Shown: positions 14,226 to 52,023, counted from the first letter of the stretch. The stretch: DNA of 64,000 nt from a virus (IMGVR_UViG_3300037455_000543:59136-123135); one strand, 5' to 3'. The notes: generated from the sequence alone by a model not told the origin. Numbers and translations: made by a program.

Positions 14226-14540
14226 CTATTTCTTATCCAGCTTATGGATTAATTTTTCTATATATTTTTTAATATCTTCTTTATCCTGTTCAGAAGAAAA
14301 CCACTTGCCTTTACCATCGCAGCTTACACAAAGATCATCTTCGTCAAAGAAAATATCGCAAACAGTTAGTCTTTCATTAATGTCAGTAATCTTAATACTG
14401 TTACCGTCATACCAGGCAGTTCCGATTTTTTCTTCTCTAAGAGAATCATTTAAATATTGACAGAGGTCGTCATATCCTTCAATAGATTCTACAAGATAAC
14501 CGGCGGTTTTTAATGTATTGATTGCTTCATTTAGATTCAT
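14226..14540 (-). CDS. LNEA-motif late protein
   Basis: MNLNEAINTLKTAGYLVES. Confidence 0.8.
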   Translation of the reverse strand: MNLNEAINTLKTAGYLVESIEGYDDLCQYLNDSLREEKIGTAWYDGNSIKITDINERLTVCDIFFDEDDLCVSCDGKGKWFSSEQDKEDIKKYIEKLIHKLDKK

Positions 14541-14543
14541 GAT

Positions 14544-14897
14544 TTAACCTTCGCCCCATTTGCCAGGTTCAAACATATCGGCAGGTCTTTCATTTTCCGG
14601 TAAGCACTTACTCAAACAGTCATAGAAAGCGGCCAATGCTTCGGACGCAGCCAAGATATCTTGCTGTAAGAATTCAATATCTGACTTTTTTGCTAAAATG
14701 TCACCAGCTTTTAGGTTTCTCATCTTAGTCAGATAGCTCATATAATATTTCCAGTCCGGACAAAGATATTCGTCCGTAATATATTCTGACAAGTTTTGAA
14801 TCGATTTCACGTCTTCCTGGCTAACCTGATAACCATCGAGATCTTCTACCAAATAATCGTTCTTGGAAAGAACTTTTAATGCTTCGTCTAAATTCAT
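14544..14897 (-). CDS. LNEA-motif late protein
   Basis: MNLDEALKVLSKNDYLVED. Confidence 0.8.
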   Translation of the reverse strand: MNLDEALKVLSKNDYLVEDLDGYQVSQEDVKSIQNLSEYITDEYLCPDWKYYMSYLTKMRNLKAGDILAKKSDIEFLQQDILAASEALAAFYDCLSKCLPENERPADMFEPGKWGEG

Positions 14898-14909
14898 AAA
14901 TAAAACCCG

Positions 14910-14942
14910 TTTACAGTTCCATCGTTTTTTATTATATTTATA
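14910..14942. promoter_or_regulatory. overlapping early (+) and late (-) promoters
   Basis: TTTACA(14910)-17-TATATT(14933) on +; TATAAATA on - at 14935-14942. Confidence 0.7.
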
Positions 14943-14945
14943 ATT

Positions 14946-15257
14946 ATGATTCAGGAACAGGAAAAATTAGACAACGCCCTAGCGGTTATCAAGGATATTA
15001 AGGAAAGGGCTAAAACTAGACGACATCTATGGCTTCATTATCTTGAAACGAGCGGTAAAAATCCCAATGATCTCTGGATTTTGAGGATGACTGACGGTAA
15101 TTATGATGTCACAGATGATGGCGTATTCTATGTAATCTGGGATAACGGCGAATATTGCTACGCATTTATCCCCATGGATTTTGTTTTCATGACTGACAAG
15201 GAAATCGGCGAGATGATTACAAGGGACAGAACAGTCAAGCGTGAATGGGAGAAGTAA
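14946..15257 (+). CDS. hypothetical protein
   Basis: First gene after early promoter. Confidence 0.75.
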   Translation: MIQEQEKLDNALAVIKDIKERAKTRRHLWLHYLETSGKNPNDLWILRMTDGNYDVTDDGVFYVIWDNGEYCYAFIPMDFVFMTDKEIGEMITRDRTVKREWEK

Positions 15258-15712
15258 TGGTCGATATTAAAGATTTTATCAATAATATGTGCAATGACTC
15301 TAAAATCGTATATGTATTTGATGCAGTTCATGGCGCTAATGTAGAGGAATCAAAGAAGATTACTCTTGTAAATACTTCTTTACTCGATGACGTCATTCGT
15401 ATTCTTTATGGCATGGTGGAATGCTTTAAACCGGAAGTATTTCCAACAATGTCGATTATTCTCTATCATCCTGAACTCATGCATACTCAATGGGAATTAG
15501 ATAATGCTGAAGTTCAAAATTGTACTGGAATTCCAGCAAATGTAGGCCATATTATTAGCGGATATATGGGTGAAAGAAAAAATAAGCGTGCTGCATCTTT
15601 TAAATTTATGGACGATTTACTTAGTCAGTTAGAAAAACAAGGCGTAACAGTATATCGTCTTGCAGGCGATTACATGAAAGAACAAAATAAAAATAAAGAA
15701 GGTAATAATTAA
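15257..15712 (+). CDS. hypothetical protein
   Basis: TAATG overlap; ORF track start 15245. Confidence 0.7.
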   Translation: MVDIKDFINNMCNDSKIVYVFDAVHGANVEESKKITLVNTSLLDDVIRILYGMVECFKPEVFPTMSIILYHPELMHTQWELDNAEVQNCTGIPANVGHIISGYMGERKNKRAASFKFMDDLLSQLEKQGVTVYRLAGDYMKEQNKNKEGNN

Positions 15713-15714
15713 TT

Positions 15715-16200
15715 ATGAGTAATTATAGACGAGGTACTTATAAGAATGACAAGATGAAAGAATCCCTGATGGAGTTGGGTCGTCTCAGGGCGCAGAGAAA
15801 ACAGCTCGATAACCAGATTAACAAGATTCTGAAAGACGCTGATGATCCGGTTGACTTGGGTGACGGATTCTTCCAACGCAGAAACATTCTGTTCGTAGAT
15901 TTCTCTGAATTCCAAGAGGTATGTAGCAAAAACGATCTTGATGTTTCCATCGACGAAAACCTTGACATTTTACATGATACCAGTTTCCCGAGTAGCTGCA
16001 GTGAGATTAACGAACTGGATGAAGATTCTACCATCGATGCAGCAATTAAGTATCTGGATAATACGGTTGCTATGCTTAACATGTTCAGGGCAAATCTTGA
16101 CAGGGCAAAGGATTCAGGCTGCGAATACCTGGTCGACTACGGTTGCACCGAACCGAAGGATTTTGACTTCAACGACGACGATGACGATGACGATGATTAA
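15715..16200 (+). CDS. acidic hypothetical protein with poly-Asp tail
   Basis: Ends DFDFNDDDDDDDD; basic N-terminus. Confidence 0.75.
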   Translation: MSNYRRGTYKNDKMKESLMELGRLRAQRKQLDNQINKILKDADDPVDLGDGFFQRRNILFVDFSEFQEVCSKNDLDVSIDENLDILHDTSFPSSCSEINELDEDSTIDAAIKYLDNTVAMLNMFRANLDRAKDSGCEYLVDYGCTEPKDFDFNDDDDDDDD

Positions 16201-16522
16201 CGTAACATTGGAAAGAGAAAAGTTCATGATTGCCTGTCGTGCGTTTTTCCCAAATTGTGAATTCGCAGGACTGGACGAAAAAGGGCCAAACATTTTCATG
16301 AATGAAGTCGAATACGCTCCTGAAAAGCATGTCTGGGCAAGTCTCTATCTTAACCAGCCAGGCGATAAGCCAGGAAAACCAGTCTGGCTGGAAGAACCAG
16401 TCTATAAGCTGGCCTATGAAATCGACAAGCGAAGTTATGCTACACGAGAGAACGAAGTCTTTTTTGTGGATCTCAAAGCATTCTCAAATGCGCTTAAGGA
16501 ATTAAAAAAGGTTGACGGTTAG
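16193..16522 (+). CDS. hypothetical protein
   Basis: 3' part of ORF 15938; ATG 16193 overlaps upstream stop. Confidence 0.65.
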   Translation: MINVTLEREKFMIACRAFFPNCEFAGLDEKGPNIFMNEVEYAPEKHVWASLYLNQPGDKPGKPVWLEEPVYKLAYEIDKRSYATRENEVFFVDLKAFSNALKELKKVDG

Positions 16523-16540
16523 TCGGCCTTTTATTATATC
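16508..16540 (+). promoter_or_regulatory. terminator hairpin with embedded early-type promoter
   Basis: AAGGTTGAC-ggtta-GTCGGCCTT+T run; TTGACG(16512)-17-TATATC. Confidence 0.55.
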
Positions 16541-16560
16541 GCCTATTTTTTGAAAACTCT

Positions 16561-16568
16561 TATAAATA
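16561..16568 (+). promoter_or_regulatory. late promoter TATAAATA
   Basis: Exact match 19 nt before ATG 16588. Confidence 0.7.
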
Positions 16569-16587
16569 ATAAAAATAGGAGTTTCAA

Positions 16588-16851
16588 ATGAATTTAAACG
16601 AAGCCACTCAGCTTTTAAAGAAAAACGGATATATTGTTGAATCTGTTTTCGATGAACCACAATATAAAGAATGGTACGGAATTTTCCACGATAAACTTTT
16701 GGACGGTTTTGTAAGTCTGGAAATCGATGATAAATTTGAGCAGTTCTTAGAAGACCATAAGAACGAAATCCAGCGTGGCTTCCTTATGGGTAAACCGCCT
16801 AAGGCATTTTCTTATTCGATTCTCGATAAATATTTAAACGAGCTGCAATAG
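16588..16851 (+). CDS. LNEA-motif late protein
   Basis: MNLNEATQLLKKNGYIVES; AGGAG SD. Confidence 0.8.
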   Translation: MNLNEATQLLKKNGYIVESVFDEPQYKEWYGIFHDKLLDGFVSLEIDDKFEQFLEDHKNEIQRGFLMGKPPKAFSYSILDKYLNELQ

Positions 16852-16881
16852 AACAGAACGTAATTAATAATTATGCTTTTT

Positions 16882-16917
16882 AAAAGGGTTGACATTTAGT
16901 CGACCCTTTTCTATATT
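16882..16917 (+). promoter_or_regulatory. terminator/early-promoter module
   Basis: AAAAGGGTTGAC-attta-GTCGACCCTTTT; TTGACA(16889)-17-TATATT. Confidence 0.75.
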
Positions 16918-16924
16918 TAAAAAT

Positions 16925-17146
16925 ATGAAATTTAGACTATATGCTTATCGACGTTCAACTGGTGAAGGAATTATGAAAGAATATCGTAAATTCCTTGATG
17001 GCGCAATAGAAGCCAATAAGTTGAAGAAAGACCCAGATATTGTCTATGTAACGTTAGGAGAAATAACCAAAGACTATTCAGGAATAGTTACTGTAGGACC
17101 AAAACCAATCTTGTTTACCCCAATTGAAGAAAAATATTGGAACTAA
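16925..17146 (+). CDS. hypothetical protein
   Basis: Start moved to ATG 16925 after promoter. Confidence 0.7.
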   Translation: MKFRLYAYRRSTGEGIMKEYRKFLDGAIEANKLKKDPDIVYVTLGEITKDYSGIVTVGPKPILFTPIEEKYWN

Positions 17147-17158
17147 AAAGGAGCAAAA

Positions 17159-17572
17159 ATGTCTAAGACAATCGCAGTAAAACATGGAACTTATAAAAAC
17201 TATGACTACATGGTGTTAAATGCCCGTGGAACTCATTTTTGTGCTTATGTAAGACTTCCAGAATCTCATCCATTTTATAAGCTTCCGTATGATGCTATTG
17301 ATTTGGATTGCCATGGCGGTTTAACCTTCAGTGAAATGACAGACTTCGAGAATGTTCGTCTCAGAGTATGGGATCCTGGGTGTGGATTATGGTGGATCCC
17401 TGGCCGTTGGGAAGAAGAAAAAGTAAAGAAAGGTTACTGGATTGGCTGGGATTATTATCACGATGGTGATTTCTGTCCGGCGTTTCCAGAACGCGGCGGT
17501 AGAGAATGGACTGCTGATGAAATTGTTCTCGAAGCAAAAATGGTAATTGAAGAACTAATCAAGAAGGAATAA
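17159..17572 (+). CDS. conserved phage protein (HGGLTF/WIGWD motif)
   Basis: FCAYVRLP..HP, CHGGLTFS, WIGWDYYH: common phage family of unknown function. Confidence 0.75.
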   Translation: MSKTIAVKHGTYKNYDYMVLNARGTHFCAYVRLPESHPFYKLPYDAIDLDCHGGLTFSEMTDFENVRLRVWDPGCGLWWIPGRWEEEKVKKGYWIGWDYYHDGDFCPAFPERGGREWTADEIVLEAKMVIEELIKKE

Positions 17573-17575
17573 ATC

Positions 17576-17935
17576 ATGGCGGAAAGCTTAGGAAAAATAT
17601 TATTCAATAAAGCCAACGCGGTAAATGACCATATCGATGAAAAGAAGATTGACCTGCTTTATAAGTTGGCTATCAATATGGCTACTAAAGAAGCAAATGC
17701 CGGTAAATATTCAGTAAATATAACTATCAATCAACGCGAATATGACGATGAATGTCCTTATTTTGACTTTACCTATGATTCACCCCGTCTGTTCGATAAA
17801 GTCATCCCAGAAGTAGTTAAAAAGCTGAATAATGAAGATATAGTAGTTAGTGTACATAAGAGTCCAGAAGGTCAGGTATTTCATTGGATTATGACATTGA
17901 TGTTCGGCAAAGACCAAGTTAACAAGAAGAAATAG
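17576..17935 (+). CDS. hypothetical protein
   Basis: 119-aa ORF, AAGGA SD. Confidence 0.75.
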   Translation: MAESLGKILFNKANAVNDHIDEKKIDLLYKLAINMATKEANAGKYSVNITINQREYDDECPYFDFTYDSPRLFDKVIPEVVKKLNNEDIVVSVHKSPEGQVFHWIMTLMFGKDQVNKKK

Positions 17936-17945
17936 GAGTTTAATT

Positions 17946-18449
17946 ATGTCTGGAGTTACATATCTTGGTATATTAGCTGTAATATTTCTTATTACTGTAC
18001 TGTTAGTTTGCGTAGGCAGTGATGGTGAAGAAGCGGATTTTGATAAATTTTGCGAAGGCCATCCATTTATGGGCTTTTTTGTTATACTTAATTGTGTAAC
18101 ATTGACTTTTGGTTTTGTTATAGGTGCATTCTGGTTTATGTCTTATATTCTTTCACCTACCACAGAACCAAAATATACAACCGAATATGCTGTAAAGGAA
18201 CAACCTAAAAATAAGGCAGAAGTAGTTAAGGTTGTAAATGATGCAATCAAGGAAACAAATCGAAAAACAGATGAAAGCAAGTGGCTACTGGAAAACAAGA
18301 AAACTAAATTGACAGTAAAGGCTGAAATTGAGGAAGGTTCCAATATCAAGGAAGCAAAGCTGGAATTTGTTGTCGACAGCGTAACTGATAAAGATATTGA
18401 TTTTGCACATAATGCCATTGCTGGAATTGTAAGTCAAATTCAGGAATAA
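17946..18449 (+). CDS. two-TM membrane protein, paralog of 18451
   Basis: Two hydrophobic segments; C-terminal LLENKKTKLTVKAEIE module. Confidence 0.8.
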   Translation: MSGVTYLGILAVIFLITVLLVCVGSDGEEADFDKFCEGHPFMGFFVILNCVTLTFGFVIGAFWFMSYILSPTTEPKYTTEYAVKEQPKNKAEVVKVVNDAIKETNRKTDESKWLLENKKTKLTVKAEIEEGSNIKEAKLEFVVDSVTDKDIDFAHNAIAGIVSQIQE

Positions 18450-18450
18450 T

Positions 18451-19170
18451 ATGACAAATAATCAAAAAGAAATACTTTTTTACGTTATTTGTATTATAGT
18501 AGTTTTTATTTTTGCAAGTGTTAGTTATATTACAGAATTTTGGGATAATAAAGATGCAGAATTTAGAAATTCTGTAAGATATGTAGAAAAAGATAATTTT
18601 GGAAGACCAAGATATTATACTTATAAAAATATAGACCAAACTTGTGCTGAATATTATGGTTATTCAAGACCTGGCCGTACTATAAAAAGAGTAAAACATA
18701 TAGTACATCCAAGTTGGATAAAGTATCTTACTCTTTTTTATGATGATGAATCTGTTGTATGTTTTTATTATGATAGACCTGAAGTCACAGGCGAATTAGA
18801 GTTTATATTTGATAAATGGGATGATGAGCATGAACCATTACATGATAATAAAGTAATCGGCCGCATGAAAAAACCTCCGATTGAAAATAGAGATGCTTTT
18901 ATTAAATGCCTTGAACAAAATGAACCATTACAAGCCAGGGTTGAAGTAATAAATGCAGTAAATGATGCTATTAAGGAAAATAATCAGAAAATAGACGAAA
19001 CTAAACAATTATTGGAAAATAAGAAAACTAAGCTGACTGTAAAGGCAGAAATCGAAGACGGTTCTACTATTAAAGAAACAGAAATCGAATTTACTCTTGA
19101 CAGTTTAGGCGATAATGATATTGATTTAGCAAATCATGCTATACTTAACATTCTAACAAAAGAAGACTAA
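18451..19170 (+). CDS. single-TM membrane protein, paralog of 17946
   Basis: N-terminal TM; same C-terminal module. Confidence 0.8.
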   Translation: MTNNQKEILFYVICIIVVFIFASVSYITEFWDNKDAEFRNSVRYVEKDNFGRPRYYTYKNIDQTCAEYYGYSRPGRTIKRVKHIVHPSWIKYLTLFYDDESVVCFYYDRPEVTGELEFIFDKWDDEHEPLHDNKVIGRMKKPPIENRDAFIKCLEQNEPLQARVEVINAVNDAIKENNQKIDETKQLLENKKTKLTVKAEIEDGSTIKETEIEFTLDSLGDNDIDLANHAILNILTKED

Positions 19171-19171
19171 T

Positions 19172-19465
19172 ATGCAACCAGTAACAATCATAAAAACTAT
19201 TGACCGCCGAATTAGGCTGTATATCGAAGGCAAATATCTATGTGACCGTTTATCGATTAACGAGTGGAATGCATTATTTAGTCGATATGAAAATGATCCG
19301 GATTCCAAAATAATAAGCCATTTGGAAGAGTCTGAAAACGGTAAGGACTATGCTATAATAGAAACTACGTTAGGAACTGTATTATCAAAAAATGCTATTA
19401 TGGATTTGCAGTTTTTACGTGCCATAGAAGTCGATGGTAAATGGCAAACTGAATGTTTACACTAA
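19172..19465 (+). CDS. hypothetical protein
   Basis: 97-aa ORF. Confidence 0.7.
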   Translation: MQPVTIIKTIDRRIRLYIEGKYLCDRLSINEWNALFSRYENDPDSKIISHLEESENGKDYAIIETTLGTVLSKNAIMDLQFLRAIEVDGKWQTECLH

Positions 19466-19476
19466 AAGGAGAAAAA

Positions 19477-19779
19477 ATGATTAAAAATTTATGTGCAGTC
19501 TTAATTGCATTTTGTCTTGTAAGTCTTATGACAGGATGCGAATCTTATGAAGAACAACAGATTGTTCGGGTTGAGCATGCGAAAGCAAGGTTAATGCCAT
19601 TCGAATATATTAAGGACTTTAATATACAAGAAGACGGATATGATGAACATTTTCGTTTAATCTGTGACCATTCAACAGGTGTTGTATATCTTAAATATAG
19701 TGGTTGGCGTAGTGCTGGTTTAACTCCCTACCTTGATGAAAATCTTAACGTGGTTCGTTGTGATAAGACTATGAAATAA
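19477..19779 (+). CDS. putative lipoprotein, DUF6440-like
   Basis: Lipobox-like LMTGC; DHSTGVVYL...AGLTPYLDE; AAGGAG SD at ATG 19477. Confidence 0.65.
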   Translation: MIKNLCAVLIAFCLVSLMTGCESYEEQQIVRVEHAKARLMPFEYIKDFNIQEDGYDEHFRLICDHSTGVVYLKYSGWRSAGLTPYLDENLNVVRCDKTMK

Positions 19780-19787
19780 GGATTATT

Positions 19788-20267
19788 ATGGCTTATACAA
19801 AAGAAAATCTGGATAATTTTAAAAAGCTTAGTGATGAACTTTGTGCTGCACAAGATGCATTTACAAATCGTGCATGTGAAGTATTTCATCGTATTTTTAC
19901 TGAATATCTTTCTAAATACGATATTGCATCCAGTGAAGACGATACAATCGAATCTGCTTGTTTAGATAGGCTGGGAATAGCTAAACAACAGTATCATGAT
20001 TATATTGATGCAGAACTTGACGGAAAAGGCATTAGCATTAAAGCAACTGGCTGGTATGGCGATCATGATGAGACTTCATATTATTATATTGAAGACGCTG
20101 AATTCTTGTATGACGATGAAAAGCTGACACATTGGATTGGCTATATGTCGAATCTAGCTGAAGCACAGCTCAAAATTAAGAAAGATAGAGAAAAAGCAGA
20201 GCAAGAAGAAATTGAACGTAAAGAACGTGCAGAATATGAACGGTTAAAGGCTAAGTATGAGCAATAA
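19788..20267 (+). CDS. hypothetical protein
   Basis: C-terminal coiled coil ERAEYERLKAKYE. Confidence 0.75.
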   Translation: MAYTKENLDNFKKLSDELCAAQDAFTNRACEVFHRIFTEYLSKYDIASSEDDTIESACLDRLGIAKQQYHDYIDAELDGKGISIKATGWYGDHDETSYYYIEDAEFLYDDEKLTHWIGYMSNLAEAQLKIKKDREKAEQEEIERKERAEYERLKAKYEQ

Positions 20268-20293
20268 AGAATGGGAAATTAAAGGATAAGATA

Positions 20294-20539
20294 ATGATTT
20301 GTTTCAAAGTAACAAAGAAAGGAACTATCGAACTGGATGTATTAAAAACCGATTTCAAAGAACTTGAACAGTTTTCTAATTATCTTAAACGATTCTGTAA
20401 TTACCTTAAAAATACAGGCAATACCCGTGCTGATAACAACAGGTTTTGCCTGGAAGAACTTTGCATGGATGGTAACTTTACCGTAGACCGCTTTGATATC
20501 GAATCTGACGGCGCTACATTCCAGATTGAAAAACGTTAG
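20294..20539 (+). CDS. hypothetical protein
   Basis: 81-aa ORF, AAGGA SD. Confidence 0.7.
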   Translation: MICFKVTKKGTIELDVLKTDFKELEQFSNYLKRFCNYLKNTGNTRADNNRFCLEELCMDGNFTVDRFDIESDGATFQIEKR

Positions 20540-21054
20540 CCTACTATATCCTTAACTATATTAGCTATTGTTTTCTTATAATTATACATTCTCGGAAGAG
20601 TAAATCGTGTAGCTATTCGTCTGACACCAGGATAATGAATAGCTACATTTTTTTCCCAACCATTCAAAGTGCATGGTCCAACGCCTTCGAACTCAATCTT
20701 TCCAGGATTCCCGTTTATATATTTGCCAGGTTCTCTTTTAACATCACGTGTAATATTAATTCCAGGAATCTTCTTAGATAATCCATTTGCACAAGAACCG
20801 GTATATGCCGTGGCATGATAACCTTCAGGCAATGTTTCTTGTAATTCTTTTAACCAAAGGTCACGAGTCTTAGTAAGAGTCTCAAAGATACCATCTAAAG
20901 AAGAATCAGAATCTGTTTCTTCATGGAGCATTTCTCTTTGTTTTGCTATTTTACGAAGTTCTTCAGTACTATACTGCTCATTAGAGCCTAATGGTTCAAA
21001 CTCTTCATTTAACAAGCCAGCAGCTTGATTCATTGTCCATTCATTTAAATTCAT
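20536..21054 (-). CDS. LNE-motif late protein, paralog of 22209
   Basis: MNLNEWTMNQAAGLLNEE; shared C-terminal domain. Confidence 0.8.
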   Translation of the reverse strand: MNLNEWTMNQAAGLLNEEFEPLGSNEQYSTEELRKIAKQREMLHEETDSDSSLDGIFETLTKTRDLWLKELQETLPEGYHATAYTGSCANGLSKKIPGINITRDVKREPGKYINGNPGKIEFEGVGPCTLNGWEKNVAIHYPGVRRIATRFTLPRMYNYKKTIANIVKDIVG

Positions 21055-21082
21055 ATTTTTCACCTTTTATTAAATGTTTCTT

Positions 21083-21109
21083 TATTTATAGATAAAATTT
21101 CTATAAATA
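21083..21109. promoter_or_regulatory. divergent late promoters
   Basis: TATAAATA on - (21083-21090) and + (21102-21109). Confidence 0.75.
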
Positions 21110-21131
21110 ATATAAAATTAAGGAGATTTAA

Positions 21132-22142
21132 ATGAATTTAAACGAAGCTAGGCAAATTCTTAAGACAAACGGTTATTTGTTGCTGAAAGAACGTGAATAT
21201 ACAGACGATGAGGCTAGTAAGATATGGGATGCCCTCGTAGCCCTCAAGAACGAGTATGAAAGAAAGGGTTATACCGTACAGCTTGTCCCTACCGAGAATG
21301 TAAGTTATTATGCCAACCTTGGTTACGATCCGACAATCGGCACGGACTATTATTCTCGCCGTACGGCAGAACAGTATGCCTATAGGAAGGATGTGTTTAA
21401 GGATGGTATAAAGAATATCGTTAAGGACGGAGAGGTGCCTGGGAAGTTCCTGCTATGTATCAAGAAGGAGCCTACTGAGGAGTATAAGGAATACCTGAAA
21501 CGTCGTGGCGTAAGTTCCTATTTCCACAGGTTCGAGATATACATAGGATTTGAACTTTTGAATGGATTCAGCGGTGACGACTTGCACTGGAAAATAAAGA
21601 AGGAGTACTATAACGGTACAGTTGACGAGTTTATTTCCATGGTAAAGAAGAACGTGGTCGACACTGAGAAGGCTTGTAAGGTGCATAATTACCAGAATCT
21701 GAAGTCAAACCTCCCGGGTGTGGCCAAGGATGCTGAGAAAAAAGCTCAGAAACTGAACAAAAAACGAAAATATGACAGGGTAAGGGAGCTGATCCTAGAT
21801 AATCCATTGGATAATTTCGACTTGTGCAGGGAAATTGACGAGGATGCATTGAACAGGGTAATGATGGACCATTTGGTTGATGTGATTGACGAATATGTAC
21901 ATGACGAGTATAACGATGAGGATGGGGAAGTCAAGTGGTGGACCGACGGTGATGATGCATGGGACTATTTCGACGAAGACTTCTGTAAGTTCCTTGATGA
22001 TGAGTATAATGGTGACTTCCGTAAGTTCTGTGAAGAAAGCGAATTAATCGTGGACGGCCAGTTCGACTGGGATTATTTCAACGAATGGCTCGATGAATGG
22101 GACTGGGACAAACCGTCAGAACCTGACAATAATCCATATTAA
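21132..22142 (+). CDS. LNEA-motif late protein with acidic/aromatic C-terminus
   Basis: MNLNEARQILKTNGYLLLKE; D/E/W-rich last ~100 aa. Confidence 0.85.
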   Translation: MNLNEARQILKTNGYLLLKEREYTDDEASKIWDALVALKNEYERKGYTVQLVPTENVSYYANLGYDPTIGTDYYSRRTAEQYAYRKDVFKDGIKNIVKDGEVPGKFLLCIKKEPTEEYKEYLKRRGVSSYFHRFEIYIGFELLNGFSGDDLHWKIKKEYYNGTVDEFISMVKKNVVDTEKACKVHNYQNLKSNLPGVAKDAEKKAQKLNKKRKYDRVRELILDNPLDNFDLCREIDEDALNRVMMDHLVDVIDEYVHDEYNDEDGEVKWWTDGDDAWDYFDEDFCKFLDDEYNGDFRKFCEESELIVDGQFDWDYFNEWLDEWDWDKPSEPDNNPY

Positions 22143-22160
22143 TTATTAAGCTTAAAAATA

Positions 22161-22190
22161 AAAGGGTTGACAAATGTCAATCCTTTTTCT
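22161..22190. terminator. bidirectional terminator with palindromic TTGACA/TGTCAA stem
   Basis: AAAGGGTTGACA-aa-TGTCAATCCTTT then T run; no -10 at 17 bp. Confidence 0.75.
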
Positions 22191-22208
22191 TTTTCTGTAT
22201 TTTAATAT

Positions 22209-23078
22209 TTATCTTTTAATATATTTTTTAATAATATTTTTAACTGTTTTATCTATACTGGCTGTAGGCTTCCATATTTCTCTAGTTGGAAAACCTCGTG
22301 TTCCTGGTATACTAAATACTAACATAATATTATCACCTAAATCTTTACACCAGTCGCCACTATCTTTGTTTTCAAAATACATAAATAAAGGATTTTTTGC
22401 ACAAATCAATTCAATCTGGCCACTTGGTTTATAATTTCTATTATAAATGTCAATATTAGGAATATCGCGAGTAAGACCATTCCATGGAGTATCTTCAGAA
22501 ATATTTGGATTATAGATAGCTTCATGACCATCTGGCAGTTGCTTCTTAAATTCTTCATAGAATTGTTCTGCCAATTCATTTGATGTTATTTTTGTAGTAT
22601 TTTGAATTTGACTTTCGCTTGCTTTTTTAATATTATCTGCATTAAATTTTTCTATACCGTCACGTACTAATCGACCAAGGACTCTTACAATAACTTTAGC
22701 ATTTTCTTCAGGTGTATCAGGCGCAATACTAAATATAGCGCTATTTTTATTATCATCACATGCTTGAATACGCATATAATGATGGTCAGCAGTACATTCA
22801 TCTACTTCATATGCATCAACTCTATATTTTCCGCCGACTGAAAAATCAAAAAGGCTGATCCATTTACTCATTAAACCGCGACATACATTGATAGGAACAT
22901 TCTGTTTTGTGCCTTCGTTTTCTAATAAATCACAGAATAAACTATAGATATCCTCTTTTGAATATGTTTTATCTAGCCAATATTTGTCATCAAGCGGAAC
23001 TTTATCCAATATATCATTTGACATATCTTCATTTAATAAGTTAGCTGCTATAGCCATTACACGTTCGTTTAAATTCAT
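22209..23078 (-). CDS. LNE-motif late protein, paralog of 20536
   Basis: MNLNERVMAIAANLLNED. Confidence 0.8.
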   Translation of the reverse strand: MNLNERVMAIAANLLNEDMSNDILDKVPLDDKYWLDKTYSKEDIYSLFCDLLENEGTKQNVPINVCRGLMSKWISLFDFSVGGKYRVDAYEVDECTADHHYMRIQACDDNKNSAIFSIAPDTPEENAKVIVRVLGRLVRDGIEKFNADNIKKASESQIQNTTKITSNELAEQFYEEFKKQLPDGHEAIYNPNISEDTPWNGLTRDIPNIDIYNRNYKPSGQIELICAKNPLFMYFENKDSGDWCKDLGDNIMLVFSIPGTRGFPTREIWKPTASIDKTVKNIIKKYIKR

Positions 23079-23105
23079 ATTTTTTCACCTAATTATTTTA
23101 TAAAG

Positions 23106-23140
23106 TATTTATAAAAGGGTAATTTATATTACCCTTTATT
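23106..23140 (-). promoter_or_regulatory. late promoter abutting terminator hairpin
   Basis: TATAAATA on - at 23106-23113; hairpin AAAGGGTAA/TTACCCTTT 23114-23137. Confidence 0.65.
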
Positions 23141-23187
23141 TTTTATTAAAATTTCTTTACAGCTAACCATAAATTTTTCTTTTTATT

Positions 23188-24339
23188 TTAATATCCTGGT
23201 GGAAGTGTATATGCATCAAAGTCTAACTTAATTACATATCGTTTTGTTACTGAATCAGCTATTATTATTTGTTTTATAAATGGGACATTGTTTATTGCAC
23301 TCGTGCCATTTGGTGTAGCCAATGTGATTATATTATTGTTTGATGTAATATTAATTTTAATATATGGCTTATTATCAATTAATGTAATGTTTTCTGGCAT
23401 TGTTAATATGACAGTTCCACCCGCATTTGGACCTGTTCCTATCATATGACCATTGAATTCACATTTAATATTATTTCTAACTTCAGTACTAACTTTTACA
23501 TCTGTTGTAAATTCAACGGGAACAGAAACATAACCATGCTTTATCTCACTACTTGGTGCCCCTGTAGACCATGGAACAGAATCATAATCAAATATTAAAT
23601 TTATTGTATAACCAGATTGTGTTTTTATTGCAAGTGGTGTTTCTAAAATATCAGGTTTAATTATAAAATTAATTGGTCTATAACCATAGCCCACCATATC
23701 TGGCGCATTATAATCTGGTTCAATCCAATTTGTAAAATATGTTTTATATGTACTTTGGTTAACTGTTTTTCTATTATCATCTAATAAAATTATATGATCA
23801 AAAAGATCAAAATTTGTTAAATCTATTATTGAATAACTATTATGTTGCATTGATTCTTCGTCGGCATCACTATAAGAATCACTATAATAATAATTAGCAA
23901 AATTAATAATTTTTTCATTATAATCATTTGCATTAAATGATGTAGTATTAGTTATTAAAGCTGGAAAAAATTCAGTAACAATAGTTTCTTTTCCTGGAAC
24001 GTCATAATTAAATATTCCATAATTATTTAACTTCTGGATAAGTGCAGACAATGCATTATTATCTACTGGAGTAGTAGCTTGACTTTCACAGTTACATTGT
24101 TTTATATTAGAAATTGCAGAATTTAAGTCTTGTTGAGTAATGTAATTATTTAATGCAGACTTTAAAGCATAATCATTTAACTTAGACAAAATTTCATTAT
24201 AATTTGCCGTATTTGTAGGTGTAGTCGAATTACTAGGTTTATTAGTAGTATTACTTGTATTACTAGAAGTATTGCTGGTACCAGATTTAACTGTGGTAGG
24301 AATTTTTGGAATTTTTAAATTTGTAACTGCTCTTGCCAT
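23188..24339 (-). CDS. late protein with S/T/N-rich N-terminal linker (putative virion protein)
   Basis: TSNTSSNTSNTTNKPSNSTTPTNT; beta-rich C-terminal domain; late promoter. Confidence 0.75.
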   Translation of the reverse strand: MARAVTNLKIPKIPTTVKSGTSNTSSNTSNTTNKPSNSTTPTNTANYNEILSKLNDYALKSALNNYITQQDLNSAISNIKQCNCESQATTPVDNNALSALIQKLNNYGIFNYDVPGKETIVTEFFPALITNTTSFNANDYNEKIINFANYYYSDSYSDADEESMQHNSYSIIDLTNFDLFDHIILLDDNRKTVNQSTYKTYFTNWIEPDYNAPDMVGYGYRPINFIIKPDILETPLAIKTQSGYTINLIFDYDSVPWSTGAPSSEIKHGYVSVPVEFTTDVKVSTEVRNNIKCEFNGHMIGTGPNAGGTVILTMPENITLIDNKPYIKINITSNNNIITLATPNGTSAINNVPFIKQIIIADSVTKRYVIKLDFDAYTLPPGY

Positions 24340-36724: not shown

Positions 36725-36725
36725 T

Positions 36726-37184
36726 ATGAAAACGATTAGAAATAATACATTTGAAACTAATTCAAGTTCTTGTCATGTTCTTACTGTCGCTGATCAGGCT
36801 GAATATGATTTGGTCAAGAATAATCAGGCAGTAATTTATGTTCCTGTCTATCATTCTCAATCTGAAGATGTTTATGAGTCTGTAATTCTTACTAAGGAAG
36901 GTTTTCTTTCTGTTATAGAAAAACAGGTCGGTGAACAGTATGAAGCCTATTCTACATTCTTTGAAGAATCATGGAATATCATGTTTATGCCTGGCTGTTA
37001 TGATGAACAGCTCGAAGAACTTGCAGTAAAATATAAGGTTCCATGTGATATCAAGCAAAAAGTAGAAGATATTATTTGGCACAGCACTCATGAAGAAGGT
37101 CAGATTGAAATTCTTGATGATGCAATTAAGAAGGAAGTTAACGGTTCTACCGTATATGTAAGTTGTTGGTCTAAATACTGCTAA
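36726..37184 (+). CDS. FETNSSS-motif protein 3
   Basis: MKTIRNNTFETNSSSCH. Confidence 0.85.
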   Translation: MKTIRNNTFETNSSSCHVLTVADQAEYDLVKNNQAVIYVPVYHSQSEDVYESVILTKEGFLSVIEKQVGEQYEAYSTFFEESWNIMFMPGCYDEQLEELAVKYKVPCDIKQKVEDIIWHSTHEEGQIEILDDAIKKEVNGSTVYVSCWSKYC

Positions 37185-38042: not shown

Positions 38043-39332
38043 ATGGTATTTGAAACTTTTGATAAAACTGTTGCATCTGGTATGGACCTCTGCCGAGTAA
38101 TCGTTCAGAAGGGTTATGAAGCCTATCTCGTTGGTGGTTGCGTTCGTGATATGATTATGCAAAGACTTGGTATGAGTGACAAGACTGATATTCATGATGT
38201 CGATATTGCTACTAACATGCCTATTGAACAGCTTCAACATAACTTCAAGACTGCAAGTAACAATGGTGAAGCTCATGGCACCATTCTTGTAGAACATGAT
38301 GGTATCTATTTCGAAGTTACTCAGTTCAGAACTGATGGCATCTATTCTGATGGTCGTCACCCTGATTCTGTAACTTTTACTAAGTCTTTCAAGGAAGATA
38401 CTGCTCGTCGTGACTTTACTATCAATGCTATGGGTCTTGACTGCAACGGTATTGTAATTGACCATCACAACGGTATTAAGTGCCTTCAGAATAAGGTTAT
38501 CAATACTGTTGGTGATCCGGTTGAACGTTTTAGTGAAGATGCACTCCGTATTCTCCGCGCATATCGCTTTGCTGCAAGGTATAAGTTCGATATTACTCCT
38601 GAGATTCGTGAAGCTATTCGTAAGACTAAGTATAAGCTCGCAGATATCGCAATGGAACGTGTTTCTGATGAACTTAAGAAGTGCATGTCTTATGGCTATA
38701 CTGAAATCGCCGCTATGGTCAGAATGATGAATACTGACGGTATTTTCCAGATTATCGATCCTAAGGGCTATATTAACCCCATCGAAGCTGAAAATATGCT
38801 TAGTACTCGTGCGGTTCGATTCGTAAATGGTATGGGTAGTAATTATACACCTCTTGGTTCGCTCATATGCATGCTCTGGGGCTCTGATTTAAAAAATGCG
38901 TATCAACACTATAAGTTAGAACACGACGTCTTCAGATGCGCCCAATGGTGCTTTAATCATCTTGATGCATATCATGTATTTGGTGAAGATATTGTTCTGG
39001 CGGTAGAAATGGTCGATAGCAGGTATTTTAACCAGCTTAGAGAGCTTGACGATGCCGTAACTGGTCATCTGATTGACCTCGCCACCTATAAAAAGGTCGG
39101 TCATATTGCAGATTTTGTAAAGACTTATACACAGGATCGTGTTCTCTCTTCTGCCATTGCGAAGTGCGGTTATCAAGGTAAGGCATTTGGTGAAATGCTT
39201 TATAAATTAAAACTTTGGCATTATACACGTCTTAGCGATAACTGTTATTATGAAGATGACGTTATCCTTGAACACCGTGCAATCGAATATATCAAGTCAT
39301 TGGAGGAAGTTAAGAATGCAAAAGAAGGTTAA
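38043..39332 (+). CDS. cca: class II tRNA nucleotidyltransferase (CCA-adding enzyme/poly(A) polymerase family)
   Basis: YLVGGCVRD, DVDIATN, HGT, RRDFTINAM, RFSEDALRILRAYRF. Confidence 0.88.
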   Translation: MVFETFDKTVASGMDLCRVIVQKGYEAYLVGGCVRDMIMQRLGMSDKTDIHDVDIATNMPIEQLQHNFKTASNNGEAHGTILVEHDGIYFEVTQFRTDGIYSDGRHPDSVTFTKSFKEDTARRDFTINAMGLDCNGIVIDHHNGIKCLQNKVINTVGDPVERFSEDALRILRAYRFAARYKFDITPEIREAIRKTKYKLADIAMERVSDELKKCMSYGYTEIAAMVRMMNTDGIFQIIDPKGYINPIEAENMLSTRAVRFVNGMGSNYTPLGSLICMLWGSDLKNAYQHYKLEHDVFRCAQWCFNHLDAYHVFGEDIVLAVEMVDSRYFNQLRELDDAVTGHLIDLATYKKVGHIADFVKTYTQDRVLSSAIAKCGYQGKAFGEMLYKLKLWHYTRLSDNCYYEDDVILEHRAIEYIKSLEEVKNAKEG

Positions 39333-39558
39333 GTTTACGATTGAATGCGAAATGGAAGAGAGATGGAAAGACTATTTCCTTTCATTTCTTAAAACCATGG
39401 AATTCTTTGGCCAGGCAGGCCATTCTGAACTTCTTGGTTTTTATTCTGATGGTGACGGCGACTTCAGGCCCAAGTTCGATTTCAAAGGAACCGAATATAC
39501 GCCTAAGGAGTCAATTCTCAGCAAGGAAATGTCAGTTAACTTCTTCGATGCTGGCTAA
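39316..39558 (+). CDS. conserved phage hypothetical protein
   Basis: FTIECEMEERW...GHSELLGFYSDGDGDFRPKF; GGAGG SD at ATG 39316. Confidence 0.75.
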   Translation: MQKKVKFTIECEMEERWKDYFLSFLKTMEFFGQAGHSELLGFYSDGDGDFRPKFDFKGTEYTPKESILSKEMSVNFFDAG

Positions 39559-39560: not shown

Positions 39561-39568
39561 TATAAATA
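39561..39568 (+). promoter_or_regulatory. late promoter TATAAATA
   Basis: Exact match upstream of 39660-40703 unit. Confidence 0.65.
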
Positions 39569-39659
39569 ATACATGAAATGTATTAGTTTATAAAATAAAA
39601 ATAACTGTATCGTCACAAGCGATATAGTTTCTTTTATTTTGTGGCAAAGGAAATTTAAT

Positions 39660-40163
39660 ATGGTAGTTCATAAGAAAGGTCATAAGAATAGCAAGGGCGA
39701 AAAAGCCGAATGGTGTATTGTTTCCCATAAAACCGGAAAAATTCTAAGTTCCCATAAGTCAAAAGCCGCAGCAAAAGCACATTTACAGCAAATGCATATA
39801 TTCAAAGAAGCACAAGATACAATCGATATGCTTGTAAACGATTTTAAAATCAATGCTTTGCTTGAACAGATGAATAACTGGGAAGTCAAAACCATGGGTT
39901 ATGAAAAATACTTGTCTATCCAGGTAAACCCAAATCTTGAACTTTATGTTTCAGTTAGCTGGGATGGAAGAGGAGAGGAATATTTTACCGTCGGAAACGA
40001 AAATGTCCCTGATGAAAGTTTTGCCTGCAGAACTGTCGCTGATGTCGCTGAAAAGCTTGAACAATACCTTGATAAACAGGGAAGTCTTATGGAAAGTATA
40101 ATGTCGCTTGATGAAGCATTTACTGTATTGAATGAAAACGGTTATATTACTGAAGCTAGGTAG
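39660..40163 (+). CDS. late protein with basic His/Lys N-domain and C-terminal LDEA motif
   Basis: KKGHKNSKGEKAEWCIVSHKTGKILSSHKSK; C-terminus SLDEAFTVLNENGYITEAR; AAAGGA SD at ATG 39660. Confidence 0.75.
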   Translation: MVVHKKGHKNSKGEKAEWCIVSHKTGKILSSHKSKAAAKAHLQQMHIFKEAQDTIDMLVNDFKINALLEQMNNWEVKTMGYEKYLSIQVNPNLELYVSVSWDGRGEEYFTVGNENVPDESFACRTVADVAEKLEQYLDKQGSLMESIMSLDEAFTVLNENGYITEAR

Positions 40164-47255: not shown

Positions 47256-47257
47256 TA

Positions 47258-48435: not shown

Positions 48436-48442
48436 GGTCATT

Positions 48443-48697: not shown

Positions 48698-48716
48698 ATT
48701 CTGAATTTTCTTTAGC

Positions 48717-48752
48717 AAGACCGTAGAAACCTACGGTCTTTTATTATAAATA
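48717..48752 (+). promoter_or_regulatory. terminator followed by late promoter
   Basis: AAGACCGTAG-aaac-CTACGGTCTT-TT, then TATAAATA 48745-48752. Confidence 0.75.
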
Positions 48753-48779
48753 TAATAAAACTAACGTTAGAGGAAATTT

Positions 48780-50213
48780 ATGAATAAAATGAAACTTTTT
48801 GAAATGGCTAAGGCTGCTCAAGAACGTATGCTTGACAGACTTCCAGTTAATAAGAAATATATTTTCTTAATTGGCCGTTTTCTTGAATTGCATGGCGATC
48901 ATAATACAATGACTCGCCTCAAACAGTATCTTGAATCTCGTCTTTCTCCTGAAGAATTCAATATGGATAATATTTGCGGTGTATTTGGCGTAGATCCTGC
49001 TGCAAAACATACTGATGCTGGAACAAGAAACAATGAAAATTCTTTCGCAAGTGTTTTTCATGCACGTTTTGAAACACTCTATAATAACATGAAGAATTCC
49101 TTAGCTCGTTCAAAAGACGATATCGATAAGAACTATGTCGATAAGGTTCTCGATTTCTATTCTGCCGTTTATAATCATGAAAATCCGCAAGAAGCCTATG
49201 ATAGACTCAATATGGGTCCGGTAATTGACTGGATTAAAGATAACAAAACTGAAGCAGAAGAACGTTTTGGTCGTCGTTGGGATAAGATTCAGCGTGTTCT
49301 TGCACAATGGCTCGATGACAACTATGAAGGTTCTACCGCTCAAGCTGTAGCTAATTTCTGGGCATGGTGGCGTCAAACTAAAGATGAAAACCCGGATGCA
49401 TTAATGCCTATCGCATTAGCACAAAGATTGGCAAGAGTATTCTGTGAAGAAAATTCTCGTGAAGTTCTTGGTAATTTCCATAACTTCGTATTAAAGAAAG
49501 TATTGGTTACATTGACCGCTGATGACAACGGTGTTCCTGGTGCACTTAAGGCTAAAGTTGGTCAGGCTGTTCGTGACGGTGAAGAATTAGGCCGTATGAC
49601 TGATTACTGCCGTAACCTCGTCAATACCTGGTTCGGAACTGAAGAACCTACAGACGAACAACTTGAAGCAATGCGTAATCGTGGTAACGACGAAGGAAAT
49701 AATGCCAATGTTGTCAATGAAGAAAACTACGAAGATACAATAGGTGATATTCTTGACCCTGCTGATACTGCTAAGCTCTCTTATGCAATGGGTGCTATCC
49801 ATCCAGATGATATACCTGTTACACTTGGAGAACTTGCTGAACAATTAAAAGAGTATATAGATTATGATAAAGTTGGTAAAGTTGATCGTGCGACTGTAAA
49901 AGCTGCATTTATGCATTTCCGCGAGAAAGTAACTTCTAAGGATTTTAGAATCGGTAATGAAATTATTGTTAATGAAAGACTTATAAATTCTATCCAGGAA
50001 TTCTATAATAACTATAAAAATATTTTCAAAATCGGTCTTACTCAAAATGGTTTATTCAAAATCTTCGACGGCCTCTTGACCCATTATTACGAACAGCGTA
50101 CTAAGGAAATTGATGATGAATGGGGCAATAAACAATATGATGATGTTCCAGATGATTATGAACTTGAAGAAGCATTAAGAGTTCTTCATCAAAATGGCTT
50201 CATGATTGACTAA
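48780..50213 (+). CDS. late protein with C-terminal LEEA motif (putative capsid-internal protein)
   Basis: MNKMKLFE...; C-terminus ELEEALRVLHQNGFMID. Confidence 0.8.
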   Translation: MNKMKLFEMAKAAQERMLDRLPVNKKYIFLIGRFLELHGDHNTMTRLKQYLESRLSPEEFNMDNICGVFGVDPAAKHTDAGTRNNENSFASVFHARFETLYNNMKNSLARSKDDIDKNYVDKVLDFYSAVYNHENPQEAYDRLNMGPVIDWIKDNKTEAEERFGRRWDKIQRVLAQWLDDNYEGSTAQAVANFWAWWRQTKDENPDALMPIALAQRLARVFCEENSREVLGNFHNFVLKKVLVTLTADDNGVPGALKAKVGQAVRDGEELGRMTDYCRNLVNTWFGTEEPTDEQLEAMRNRGNDEGNNANVVNEENYEDTIGDILDPADTAKLSYAMGAIHPDDIPVTLGELAEQLKEYIDYDKVGKVDRATVKAAFMHFREKVTSKDFRIGNEIIVNERLINSIQEFYNNYKNIFKIGLTQNGLFKIFDGLLTHYYEQRTKEIDDEWGNKQYDDVPDDYELEEALRVLHQNGFMID

Positions 50214-50221
50214 ATAAAATT

Positions 50222-50290
50222 AAAGAGGATTTCAAAATCCTCTTTTTTAATAGTAATAAAAAGGCGATTTTTGAATCGCCTTATTTTTAT
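50222..50290. terminator. two hairpin terminators between convergent late genes
   Basis: AAAGAGGAT/ATCCTCTTT and AAGGCGATT/AATCGCCTT. Confidence 0.8.
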
Positions 50291-52023
50291 TAGATTTCTT
50301 CCCAGATTTCTATGAAGCTTCCGCCTTCATTAGGTCTGCGTTCATTGAAATCGCCTGGTTTATAATCGAAGACAATCGGATCTTCTGTATCATTCAGCTT
50401 TTCAAGTGCAGCTTCCTTAGTAGGTGCAGCAACAACAACGTTATCTGTGATTGCTGGATTTACATTACCGTTTTCGTCAACTGGGTGATAGTATACACGC
50501 CATTCCTTAGGTCTTGCCATACGGTGAACAGGTCCATTAATTCTTCTTGGTTCTCTGTTTCTCGGTCTTTCACCAGCCGGTTCTTCAGCCGGAGCTTCTT
50601 CAGCAGGTGCTTCTTCTCTTGCAGGAGCTTCTTCAGCAGGTTCTTCAGCCGGAGCTTCCTCACCAGCAGCAGGAATGTCAGCAAACAATTCTTGATATTC
50701 TGCTGGAAGCGGACCAGGTTTTTCATTATCGATTAAACCATGTCCCTGTCTAACGGCAATTTCTTTTTCTTCAGGTTCATTTGGTCTAATTTCAACGAAT
50801 GTAAAGACATTATCAAACTTTTCATCAATTTGATCTTTTACCCATTGAGAAAGACCATTTGCATTATTACAAATATATTGAACATAAATTTTTGCGGTAT
50901 CACCATCAAAATCAGCAGTCAAAGCAATCTTGTTACCTTCAGGGTCATAGTCATCAACCGCTGCTTTAAGTGATTCATATGCTTCTCTAATATTTGCAGT
51001 TTCTTCACCGCCTTCAGTATCAATTTCAACAGCAACCGTTCTTGTAGTTACTCGAACATTTACTTCTGCTGGAGCTTCAGCTGCCGGTCTTTCTTGTCTT
51101 GCTGGTGCTGCAGGTGCTGCAGGTTCTTCATGTGCAGGTTGTGCTTGCTGTGCAGGTTGACCGCCAAGTCTGTGACCACGTGGGTTCGGGTTATCGCCGC
51201 CTCTACCAGTCGGTTGCGGAGGAACAGCGCCATTAATCTTACCGTCTGCTGCAACTGTAATAGCATCCTGATGGTGAGTATCTGTAAGTATCTGGTTAAG
51301 AGAATTAATAAACGATCTTAACTTAGCTTTACCGCGTTCCGGTGCATCAGGAATGAAAGAAGCGAAACCATAAATGAACTTCTTAACCTTATCTGGGTCA
51401 CGTTCCAAAACGTGGTTTGATTTAGCAGATGCATAACAATTCTTAAATGCATTACATCTTGCAAAGGCTGCAGGGTCCATGCCGCGGAATTCATTTGCTT
51501 CGTTAAGCATAAAACCATGCTGACCAAGAACTTCAACTGCTTCTCTGATTTCCTCATCACTTGGATAATATTCATTATTCATATCATCATAAAGATCAGT
51601 TTCTTCATCAGAGTAATCATCAGGAATTCTGCCGTCGTCTTCAGGTTCTTCAAAACCATTAAGCTTTCCTAAATTTTCATCTTCCGGATAATCATCATAG
51701 TTTTCTTCGTCTTCTTGTTCTTCGTCGCCGATATAATCGTTTTCATTATCCAATCTTTGTGATTCTTCATAGATAGCGTCAACGAGCTTATCAACTGCCT
51801 TAGTTGGTTCTATGCCATCTTCATAATATGAATTAATGATATCGGCATACCATTCGTCTTGCATCAATTCATCAATAGACTGATAATTTTCATCGTCTTT
51901 ATATGTATCAGCCCATAAGTCATTTAACTTGGCTACGTAATCTTCAAACGAACCAGTTGCCTGTTCTTTCAAGACATACAAACCATGTTGCTTAATTATT
52001 GATTTAGCTTCATTAATTGTCAT
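50290..52023 (-). CDS. acidic low-complexity late protein with two LNEA-type motifs
   Basis: MTINEAKSIIKQHGLYVLKE; internal EIREAVEVLGQHGFMLNE; EEAPAEEP repeats. Confidence 0.85.
   Translation of the reverse strand: MTINEAKSIIKQHGLYVLKEQATGSFEDYVAKLNDLWADTYKDDENYQSIDELMQDEWYADIINSYYEDGIEPTKAVDKLVDAIYEESQRLDNENDYIGDEEQEDEENYDDYPEDENLGKLNGFEEPEDDGRIPDDYSDEETDLYDDMNNEYYPSDEEIREAVEVLGQHGFMLNEANEFRGMDPAAFARCNAFKNCYASAKSNHVLERDPDKVKKFIYGFASFIPDAPERGKAKLRSFINSLNQILTDTHHQDAITVAADGKINGAVPPQPTGRGGDNPNPRGHRLGGQPAQQAQPAHEEPAAPAAPARQERPAAEAPAEVNVRVTTRTVAVEIDTEGGEETANIREAYESLKAAVDDYDPEGNKIALTADFDGDTAKIYVQYICNNANGLSQWVKDQIDEKFDNVFTFVEIRPNEPEEKEIAVRQGHGLIDNEKPGPLPAEYQELFADIPAAGEEAPAEEPAEEAPAREEAPAEEAPAEEPAGERPRNREPRRINGPVHRMARPKEWRVYYHPVDENGNVNPAITDNVVVAAPTKEAALEKLNDTEDPIVFDYKPGDFNERRPNEGGSFIEIWEEI
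50575..50670 (-). repeat. tandem imperfect coding repeats (EEAPA/EEPA)
   Basis: Repeated ttcttcagc/ttcttcagccggagc units encoding EEAPAEEPAEEAPAREEAPAEEAPAEEPA. Confidence 0.8.

Follow-up and report, generated by a model that had tools for sequence, protein, structure and literature searches.

The DNA analysed here (the window) is a 64,000-nucleotide (nt) stretch of a virus, IMGVR_UViG_3300037455_000543, and covers bases 59136-123135 of a 424,163-bp record with direct terminal repeats and 35% G+C. Between window positions 14,226 and 52,023, several genes encode proteins that share an 18-residue peptide, hereafter the tag, which stands at the start, in the middle or at the end of about two dozen unrelated late proteins of the genome. 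Where more protein follows the tag, a triplet of the type (L/I)xE mostly follows as well. We argue below that the tag probably acts as the version of the phage T4 capsid-targeting sequence (CTS) belonging to this lineage. Positions are those of the window unless given as genome positions, and genes are named by their lower coordinate. Genes were called as the longest ATG-started open reading frames (ORFs), chosen greedily, and a few starts are possibly wrong.

Tag copies in the window and in the genome

Seven proteins of the window carry eight full tags, and two more begin with a variant leader. On the minus strand, the 117-residue protein 14544-14897 begins with the tag MNLDEALKVLSKNDYLVE (14844-14897). 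Its gene has the late-promoter box TATAAATA 45 nt upstream and heads a transcription unit continuing into gene 14226, which begins 3 nt downstream and encodes a 104-residue protein (14226-14540, minus strand) whose N-terminal tag MNLNEAINTLKTAGYLVE (14487-14540) ends LVE and scores 20.2 bits against the tag profile. The top profile match, with 25.5 bits, is the N-terminal tag MNLNEATQLLKKNGYIVE (16588-16641, plus strand) of the 87-residue protein 16588-16851, and here TATAAATA lies 27 nt upstream of the gene. Also on the plus strand, the 336-residue protein 21132-22142 begins with tag and candidate cut site together, MNLNEARQILKTNGYLLLKE (21132-21191).

Other placements are found further along. 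The 167-residue protein 39660-40163 (plus strand) has the triplet LME just before a near-C-terminal tag, MSLDEAFTVLNENGYITE (40101-40154), which is followed by AR and a stop; its box TATAAATA is at 39562-39569 (plus strand), about 95 nt upstream of the gene. The 477-residue protein 48780-50213 (plus strand) ends with YELEEALRVLHQNGFMID (50157-50210), directly followed by the stop with no Glu after it, and this C-terminal tag is kept in the G001 and G002 orthologues. The 577-residue protein 50290-52023 (minus strand) carries two tags, one at its N-terminus with a candidate cut site, MTINEAKSIIKQHGLYVLKE (51964-52023), and a second, internal one, EEIREAVEVLGQHGFMLNE, at residues 157-175 (51499-51555).

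The variant leaders, each of 17 residues, open two minus-strand proteins with late promoters: MNLNEWTMNQAAGLLNE (21004-21054) on the 172-residue protein 20536-21054 and MNLNERVMAIAANLLNE (23028-23078) on the 289-residue protein 22209-23078. This MNLNE....AAxLLNE sequence is a different leader, outside the scoring of the tag profile, and occurs only on these two proteins in the genome. The two are weak paralogues, with 25% identity over the C-terminal 120 residues.

The consensus of the tag, from 96 unique copies pooled from the phage and its relatives, which include orthologues and are thus not fully independent, is MNLNEAKQILKNNGY(I/L)(V/L), and the near-fixed residues are A6, L10, E5, G14, L3 and Y15. 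A strict pattern matched 8 times in the window and 16 times in the proteins of the genome, while 200 shuffles gave a mean of 0.53 and a maximum of 3; the profile gave 22 genome copies at 14 bits or more and none in 20 shuffled proteomes. With weaker copies included, the genome holds about 22-26 tags. The initiator Met is the start of the tag in about two thirds of the copies, five or six copies end their protein (window genes 39660 and 48780; genome genes 148492, 269705 and 342917), and several are internal (residue 159 of the 50290 protein; genome genes 155996 and 231469). The first-pass annotation of the window had listed the full copies, eight in number, and both variant leaders, and all of them are present at the genes it named; its figure of about ten tagged proteins is correct as a count for the window, whereas the genome holds about twice that.

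The carriers and their promoters

The carriers have 87-577 residues. In an all-against-all BLASTP comparison, little aligned beyond the 17-20 residues of the tag, apart from weak extended similarity among a few small carriers. The earlier description of these proteins as mostly unrelated is borne out, since similarity is essentially confined to the tag. Pfam and PHROG searches gave no convincing family match on any of 19 carriers. The modelled cargo of 21132 had no match in a fold search of the PDB at E up to 0.001, and the 477-residue carrier had no usable match in the ESM Atlas, where its model is poor (predicted local distance difference test, pLDDT, 0.43). Searches with single carriers for related loci found no relatives, and a megablast of window 14000-23200 against a phage collection gave no match.

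The promoters of these genes are much more uniform than the proteins. The box TATAAATA lies within 60 nt upstream of 16 of 20 carrier genes genome-wide, compared with 89 of 687 genes (Fisher p = 5.6e-12, odds ratio 32.5). Among the remaining four carriers, two follow a tagged gene in their own unit (14226 after 14544; genome 149275 after 148923), one (39660) has its box further upstream as given above, and genome gene 148492 has CATAAATA. The claim that all tagged genes sit in TATAAATA units was essentially right. Judged by the promoter box, the carriers are late genes, and the enrichment means that the motif is not equally common on early genes, a comparison that the first-pass annotation had itself proposed.

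A glutamate that depends on tag position

In this genome and two relatives, (L/I)xE occurs within 10 residues after the conserved Gly in 25 of 29 N-terminal or internal tags, against a background rate of 9.8%; when V or M is also allowed at the first site position, the triplet follows 28 of these 29 tags with downstream polypeptide. By comparison, only two of eight C-terminal tags are followed by (L/I)xE, and both have a few extra residues after the Glu. Pooled over the unique copies, the triplet is present in 79 of 88 tags with downstream protein versus 2 of 8 C-terminal tags. The Glu stands at +4, +5 or +6 from the Gly (YLVE, YQVINE, YLLLKE). Since it occurs only where a product could be released, and at a sliding distance, the Glu resembles a selected cut site rather than a fold element. 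The C-terminal tags retain G-Y-(I/N)-(V/I) without the Glu, so this part would belong to the predicted binding element. The start of the tag, h-x-E-A, is the same kind of site as fills the scaffold proteins described below; together with (L/I)xE at the other end, it gives each tag a potential cut on both sides.

The head module of the phage

From its family matches, a T4-type head module is present in the phage genome. A prohead protease of the Peptidase_S77 family is encoded at genome 186991-187659 on the plus strand (PF03420, 101.7 bits), the major head protein at genome 199355-200674 on the minus strand (phrog_138 at 1.9e-63; PF07068 at 228.6 bits) and the portal protein at genome 208020-209633. 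The N-terminal stretch of the head protein ends LTE54, followed by DF, which makes an LTE propeptide site. Directly upstream of the head protein gene, genome 200759-201736 encodes a 325-residue coiled-coil protein with 151 relatives; T4 gp22 matches 67 among the 150 listed, and by these matches the protein is a gp22-type scaffold. It contains 17 (L/I)xE triplets in 325 residues, at 5.2% of positions versus a proteome background of 1.28%, and its relatives are packed with sites of the LNEA, LDEA and INEA types. The protease itself begins MEAKKLLNE-QAIAE-SKVINE; these 20 residues contain three sites of the cut type and faintly recall the tag. Such sites in scaffold, head protein and protease fit a protease predicted to cut after L/I-x-E as T4 gp21 does (PMC9026906).

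Degenerate tags followed by IxE lie beside two of these genes. One is on a 107-residue Cys-rich protein (genome 187729-188052, minus strand) divergent from the protease gene, and the other is on a 194-residue protein (genome 201875-202459, minus strand) upstream of the scaffold gene. A separate observation concerns the head protein, as another 194-residue protein (genome 217968-218552, plus strand) repeats, after LDE15, the stretch DF.(Q/M)GVG.P.GLDQGIPHGGD that follows LTE54 in the head protein, and then continues with a K/R run and LHE.

Conservation and predicted structure of the tag

The tag is the best conserved part of the orthologues. Across 11 homologues of the 577-residue protein, which are 28-98% identical, the two tags are invariant along with the Glu that follows each, namely E5, A6, G14 and E20 in the N-terminal tag and E161, A162, L166, G170, E175 and A176 in the internal one. 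In eight homologues of the 336-residue protein, down to 34% identity, M1, N2, L3, E5, A6, L10, G14, L18 and E20 are invariant, even in three members in which the next 180 residues are replaced. At identical tag residues, codon identity was 0.49 observed versus 0.46 expected, that is, random choice, and this places selection on the peptide and not on DNA or RNA.

AlphaFold2 models showed tag helices at residues 3-13 and 156-168 of the 577-residue protein, the internal one with pLDDT below 50, and at residues 3-12 of the 336-residue protein, where residues 14-20, including the candidate cut site, were also below 50. In general, the tag had pLDDT of about 40-60 and lay in or beside low-confidence stretches, while cargo domains scored higher. 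In these models, the tag appears as a free helix that stands clear of the folded cargo, as expected for a peptide that would fold on a partner and expose a protease site. The two tags of the 577-residue protein were considered as a possible pair, and AlphaFold2 did not pack them together. A complex prediction with the scaffold homologue (36-row alignment), the protease and the 87-residue tag protein (15-row alignment) gave no answer (score 0.00) and is evidence neither way.

Fusion and fission at the tag

Three pairs of orthologues differ in tag placement, the tag being C-terminal in one phage and internal in the other. The 39660 protein stops two residues after its tag (GYITEAR, stop), and its relatives (G002 gene 5569-6417, P0015 and P0016; 89-92% identical) have about 105 more residues after ITE, giving forms of 272-282 residues with the tag internal. 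Genome gene 148492, of 118 residues and ending GYIVK, corresponds to the first 118 residues of a 283-residue G001 protein in which the internal tag reads GYIVE and is followed by RKG. Genome gene 269705, of 428 residues and ending GYIVSK, is 26% identical to a 531-residue G001 protein in which the tag reads GYLVE and is followed by FRDASQ; the FRDASQ cargo also stands alone behind an N-terminal tag in three IMG/VR contigs (L042, L054 and L057).

The 39660 protein opens with a basic module of about 50 residues, MVVHKKGHKNSKGEKAEWCIVSHKTGKILSSHKSK.. (window 39660-39815), which is the sole part common to a family of 160 proteins; in many members it is followed directly by the tag, (L/I)xE and an unrelated cargo. 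More than 100 protein clusters, drawn from many contigs, contain the module at about 75% identity, usually with the tag and a variable cargo behind it; it had no match in Pfam, PHROG or PDB. If cut off, it would be a basic peptide of about 50 residues. We dropped the module as a common receptor for the tag, since it occurs once in this genome.

Distribution of the tag

With the tag profile, a relative of 165 kb gave 13 matches, of which 10 lay on called genes and scored at least 10 bits, and another of 33 kb gave 4. In IMG/VR, the exact pattern MNLNEAxxxLxxxGY gave 28 matches in 25 loci, for which a rough estimate of the chance expectation is well under one. In 26 of these 28 the pattern is followed by (L/I)xE, many lie behind TATAAATA, and the cargoes have 88-428 residues. 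The profile had no match in the T4 genome at E up to 10, nor in T4 gp67, gp68, gp21, gp22, gp23 or gp24. A tblastn search with one 20-residue tag returned only matches with E of at least 2 in Listeria phage fragments, which we judged to be chance.

Comparison with known targeting systems

In T4, the internal proteins and Alt are made with propeptides of 10-19 residues, which give them an affinity for the core of the prohead and are cleaved off after L/I-x-E; in this very diverse set of proteins nothing but the propeptide is conserved, and the C-terminus of Alt is processed too (PMC9026906, PMC3012670, PMC5694885). The CTS on IPI, IPII, IPIII and Alt was reported by Mullaney and Black in 1996 and is reviewed in PMC9026906 and PMC3012670. 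The tag resembles this system in being a short peptide on otherwise unrelated, fast-changing late proteins, in ending with L/I-x-E, in its length (18-20 residues, compared with 10-19 in T4), and in accompanying a gp21-type protease and a gp22 scaffold. It differs by a longer conserved helix with a Gly-Tyr cap, by its additional placement at C-termini and between domains, sometimes twice per protein, and by its roughly 22-26 mostly acidic carriers per genome, with a function inferred from sequence. Since these function-like features come without likeness in sequence, the tag would be CTS-like in its working and not a homologue of the T4 CTS.

Encapsulin cargo is loaded by a peptide that is likewise short and usually terminal, and that suffices to bring diverse proteins into a shell of the HK97 fold. 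This peptide attaches to the shell itself and no protease takes it off, and the analogy with the tag is functional only. In giant phages such as phiKZ, 201phi2-1 and SPN3US, many internal head proteins are cut after Glu by a gp21-like protease, as would be the case here; in these phages, propeptides are likewise thought to target proteins to the prohead, cut sites are redundant and paralogues may share N-termini (PMC5694885, PMC10052503). However, these propeptides are mostly longer than 100 residues, family-specific and cut at another motif, with no single short cassette common to unrelated proteins (PMC5694885, PMC10052503).

Interpretation and alternatives

We consider it probable, at roughly 0.6, that the tag is the version of the T4 CTS in this lineage, a propeptide that would work at any position in the protein. 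The capsid-targeting and processing interpretation of the first-pass annotation is supported as far as it concerns a portable, position-independent tag coupled to a gp21-type (L/I)xE site, through the protease, the sites in the scaffold and the capsid protein, the late carriers, the Glu rule, the conservation and the modelled free helix. Its further suggestion that the carriers are early anti-defence effectors found no support, as the carriers match no family and the one folded cargo matches no known fold.

Several observations weigh against this interpretation. The tag has no likeness to the T4 CTS MKTYQEFIAE and no copy in T4. The T4 CTS is described at N-termini only, and internal or C-terminal targeting tags have no experimental precedent in a T4-like phage. 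The carriers of this uncultured phage are mostly acidic, with a median isoelectric point of 4.8 versus 5.7 for the genome, whereas IPII and IPIII of T4 are basic. Four of the 29 non-C-terminal tags do not have a strict (L/I)xE, although three of these four have V/M-x-E, and Y-(I/L)-V-E could be a partly inherited motif and not an independently selected site.

In the mechanism that we propose, the tag would form an amphipathic helix of about 12 residues, with M1, L3, A6, I9 and L10 on its conserved face and G14 as its cap, followed by an aromatic-hydrophobic stretch (Y15, I/L16 and V/L17). This element would bind a component of the prohead core and thereby carry any attached protein into the assembling head. 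The gp21-type protease would then cut at (L/I)xE, 4-6 residues past the Gly, and free the downstream cargo; the scaffold-like h-x-E-A at the tag start would be a second candidate cut site. Core binding, packaging, cleavage and injection of the carriers are all inferred steps. Used as a cassette, the tag could be N-terminal, C-terminal or between two domains, so that one tag could load two cargoes; genes fuse and split exactly at it. More tentatively, then, we propose a position-independent loading cassette bracketed by protease sites, with genes that deliver one or two mature head proteins and an injected set that is reshuffled by fusion and splitting at the tag.

Four alternatives are taken in the order in which they survive. 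The tag may be only a processing junction, an exosite or recognition element for the prohead protease or another late protease, with head entry depending on something else. The bracketing of the tag by h-x-E-A and (L/I)xE, the abundance of LNEA- and LDEA-type sites in scaffold relatives and the internal tags between domains would all fit such a role. However, C-terminal tags are conserved with nothing downstream, and one of them (269705 and its 26%-identical relative) has no flanking (L/I)xE; these are hard to explain by cutting alone. In addition, proteases of the T4 type need only L/I-x-E (PMC9026906), and the 12-residue conserved helix exceeds that need. We regard this explanation as unlikely, but it is the strongest of the four.

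The tag could also be a docking peptide for some other late assembly or hub, such as the tail, the baseplate, a chaperone or a compartment, and the Glu would then be structural or coincidental. Late promoters drive all virion and assembly genes and not head genes alone, and the carriers are scattered over the genome, which together with the missing partner leaves room for this idea. The presence of the Glu, however, tracks downstream protein while its spacing varies, which points to a Glu-specific head protease; the genes with degenerate tags, genome 187729 and 201875, are neighbours of the protease gene and the scaffold gene respectively; and the identified structural proteins (major head protein, portal and tail sheath) are without the tag. 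We therefore give docking elsewhere only a small chance as well.

It is very improbable that the peptide is no tag but a common helix-Gly-aromatic-strand building block, as at the start of HicA, in the helix and strand of PASTA or in a stretch of substrate-binding proteins, recurring as a stable piece of small folds. Matches in a profile search of the PDB were weak and generic (FNLKEAKRLVKESGY in AccA; part of a UBA domain), and the spacing E-x4-L-x3-G-aromatic presumably also fits the first helix and strand of HicA. On the other hand, the profile copies in the genome have no equivalent in shuffled proteomes, copies stand at extreme termini, the tag is modelled at low confidence apart from the cargo fold, and no Pfam family was found on the carriers; nor does a building block give any reason for the late-promoter link or the cut-site rule. 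The HicA toxin, a dsRBD-like fold of helix, three strands and helix with its catalytic His (G-S-H) after the first strand, was rejected as a candidate, as it had no match on 19 carriers (E up to 0.1-1), the sequences after the tag diverge and have no G-S-H, and C-terminal tags exist. The PASTA domain, which spans about 65 residues, was rejected too: only the degenerate copy in genome gene 201875 matched it, over 36 residues and at 20.3 bits, below the cut-off of 23.2, and full tags matched nothing. We take the HicA, PASTA and UBA likenesses as generic supersecondary-structure matches.

Finally, a nucleotide-level element (a recombination linker, a translation enhancer or a recent duplication) is hardly credible, for although genes fuse and split exactly at the tag, and conserved flanks were reportedly proposed by Repoila et al. 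in 1994 (cited in PMC3012670) to help the exchange of T-even internal-protein genes, copies share 56% nucleotide identity on average, some of them are internal or C-terminal, and the near-chance codon choice given above largely refutes it. What remains of our confidence is reserved for explanations not considered here.

If the tag is a targeting propeptide of the T4 kind, head-packed and probably injected proteins could be listed from sequence alone, for this jumbo phage and its many uncultured relatives. The list would amount to about 20-25 proteins per phage, or about 3% of genes, all without known function. The T4 targeting idea would then cover a further peptide, placements at the C-terminus and inside proteins, and polyprotein-like carriers releasing two products, and the tag would serve as a handle for packaging at whichever end of a protein it is put. 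The position-dependent Glu provides a simple, testable rule by which the binding and cutting parts of the tag can be told apart. The novel elements are the peptide, its C-terminal and interdomain use, the position-dependent Glu and the fusion and fission at the tag; as the principle is textbook knowledge for T4, the advance lies in variant and scope, not in kind.

Other leaders and repeats

Outside the window, three late-promoter paralogues of about 950 residues (genome 266790-269654, plus strand; 292747-295578 and 295642-298467, both minus strand) begin MKNLLLE, MNKLLLE and MSMILNE, and each leader is followed by a conserved SIDNESRK-like stretch. These leaders may represent a second, T4-like type of short leader. 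Within the window, at 2485-5235, six proteins of 49-96 residues (genes 2485, 3283, 3870, 4512, 4911 and 5062) have the N-terminal sequence MT(V/I)xELIxxLxK(F/Y)PxD, and one further such protein is at genome 47434; TATAAATA is absent within 60 nt upstream of all of them.

Two adjacent membrane-anchored proteins (window 17946-18449 and 18451-19170) share a near-identical C-terminal stretch of about 70 residues, ..VNDAIKE.N.K.DE.K.LLENKKTKLTVKAEIE.GS.IKE... A small ORF at about window 39332-39557 on the plus strand, with the sequence ..KFTIECEMEERWKDYFLSFLKTMEFFGQ.., was missed by ATG-only calling and is conserved in G002 (80 residues, gene 5262-5504). Three paralogues in window 36218-37184 and 56162-56917 begin MKTIR.(N/C)TFETNSSS.H.

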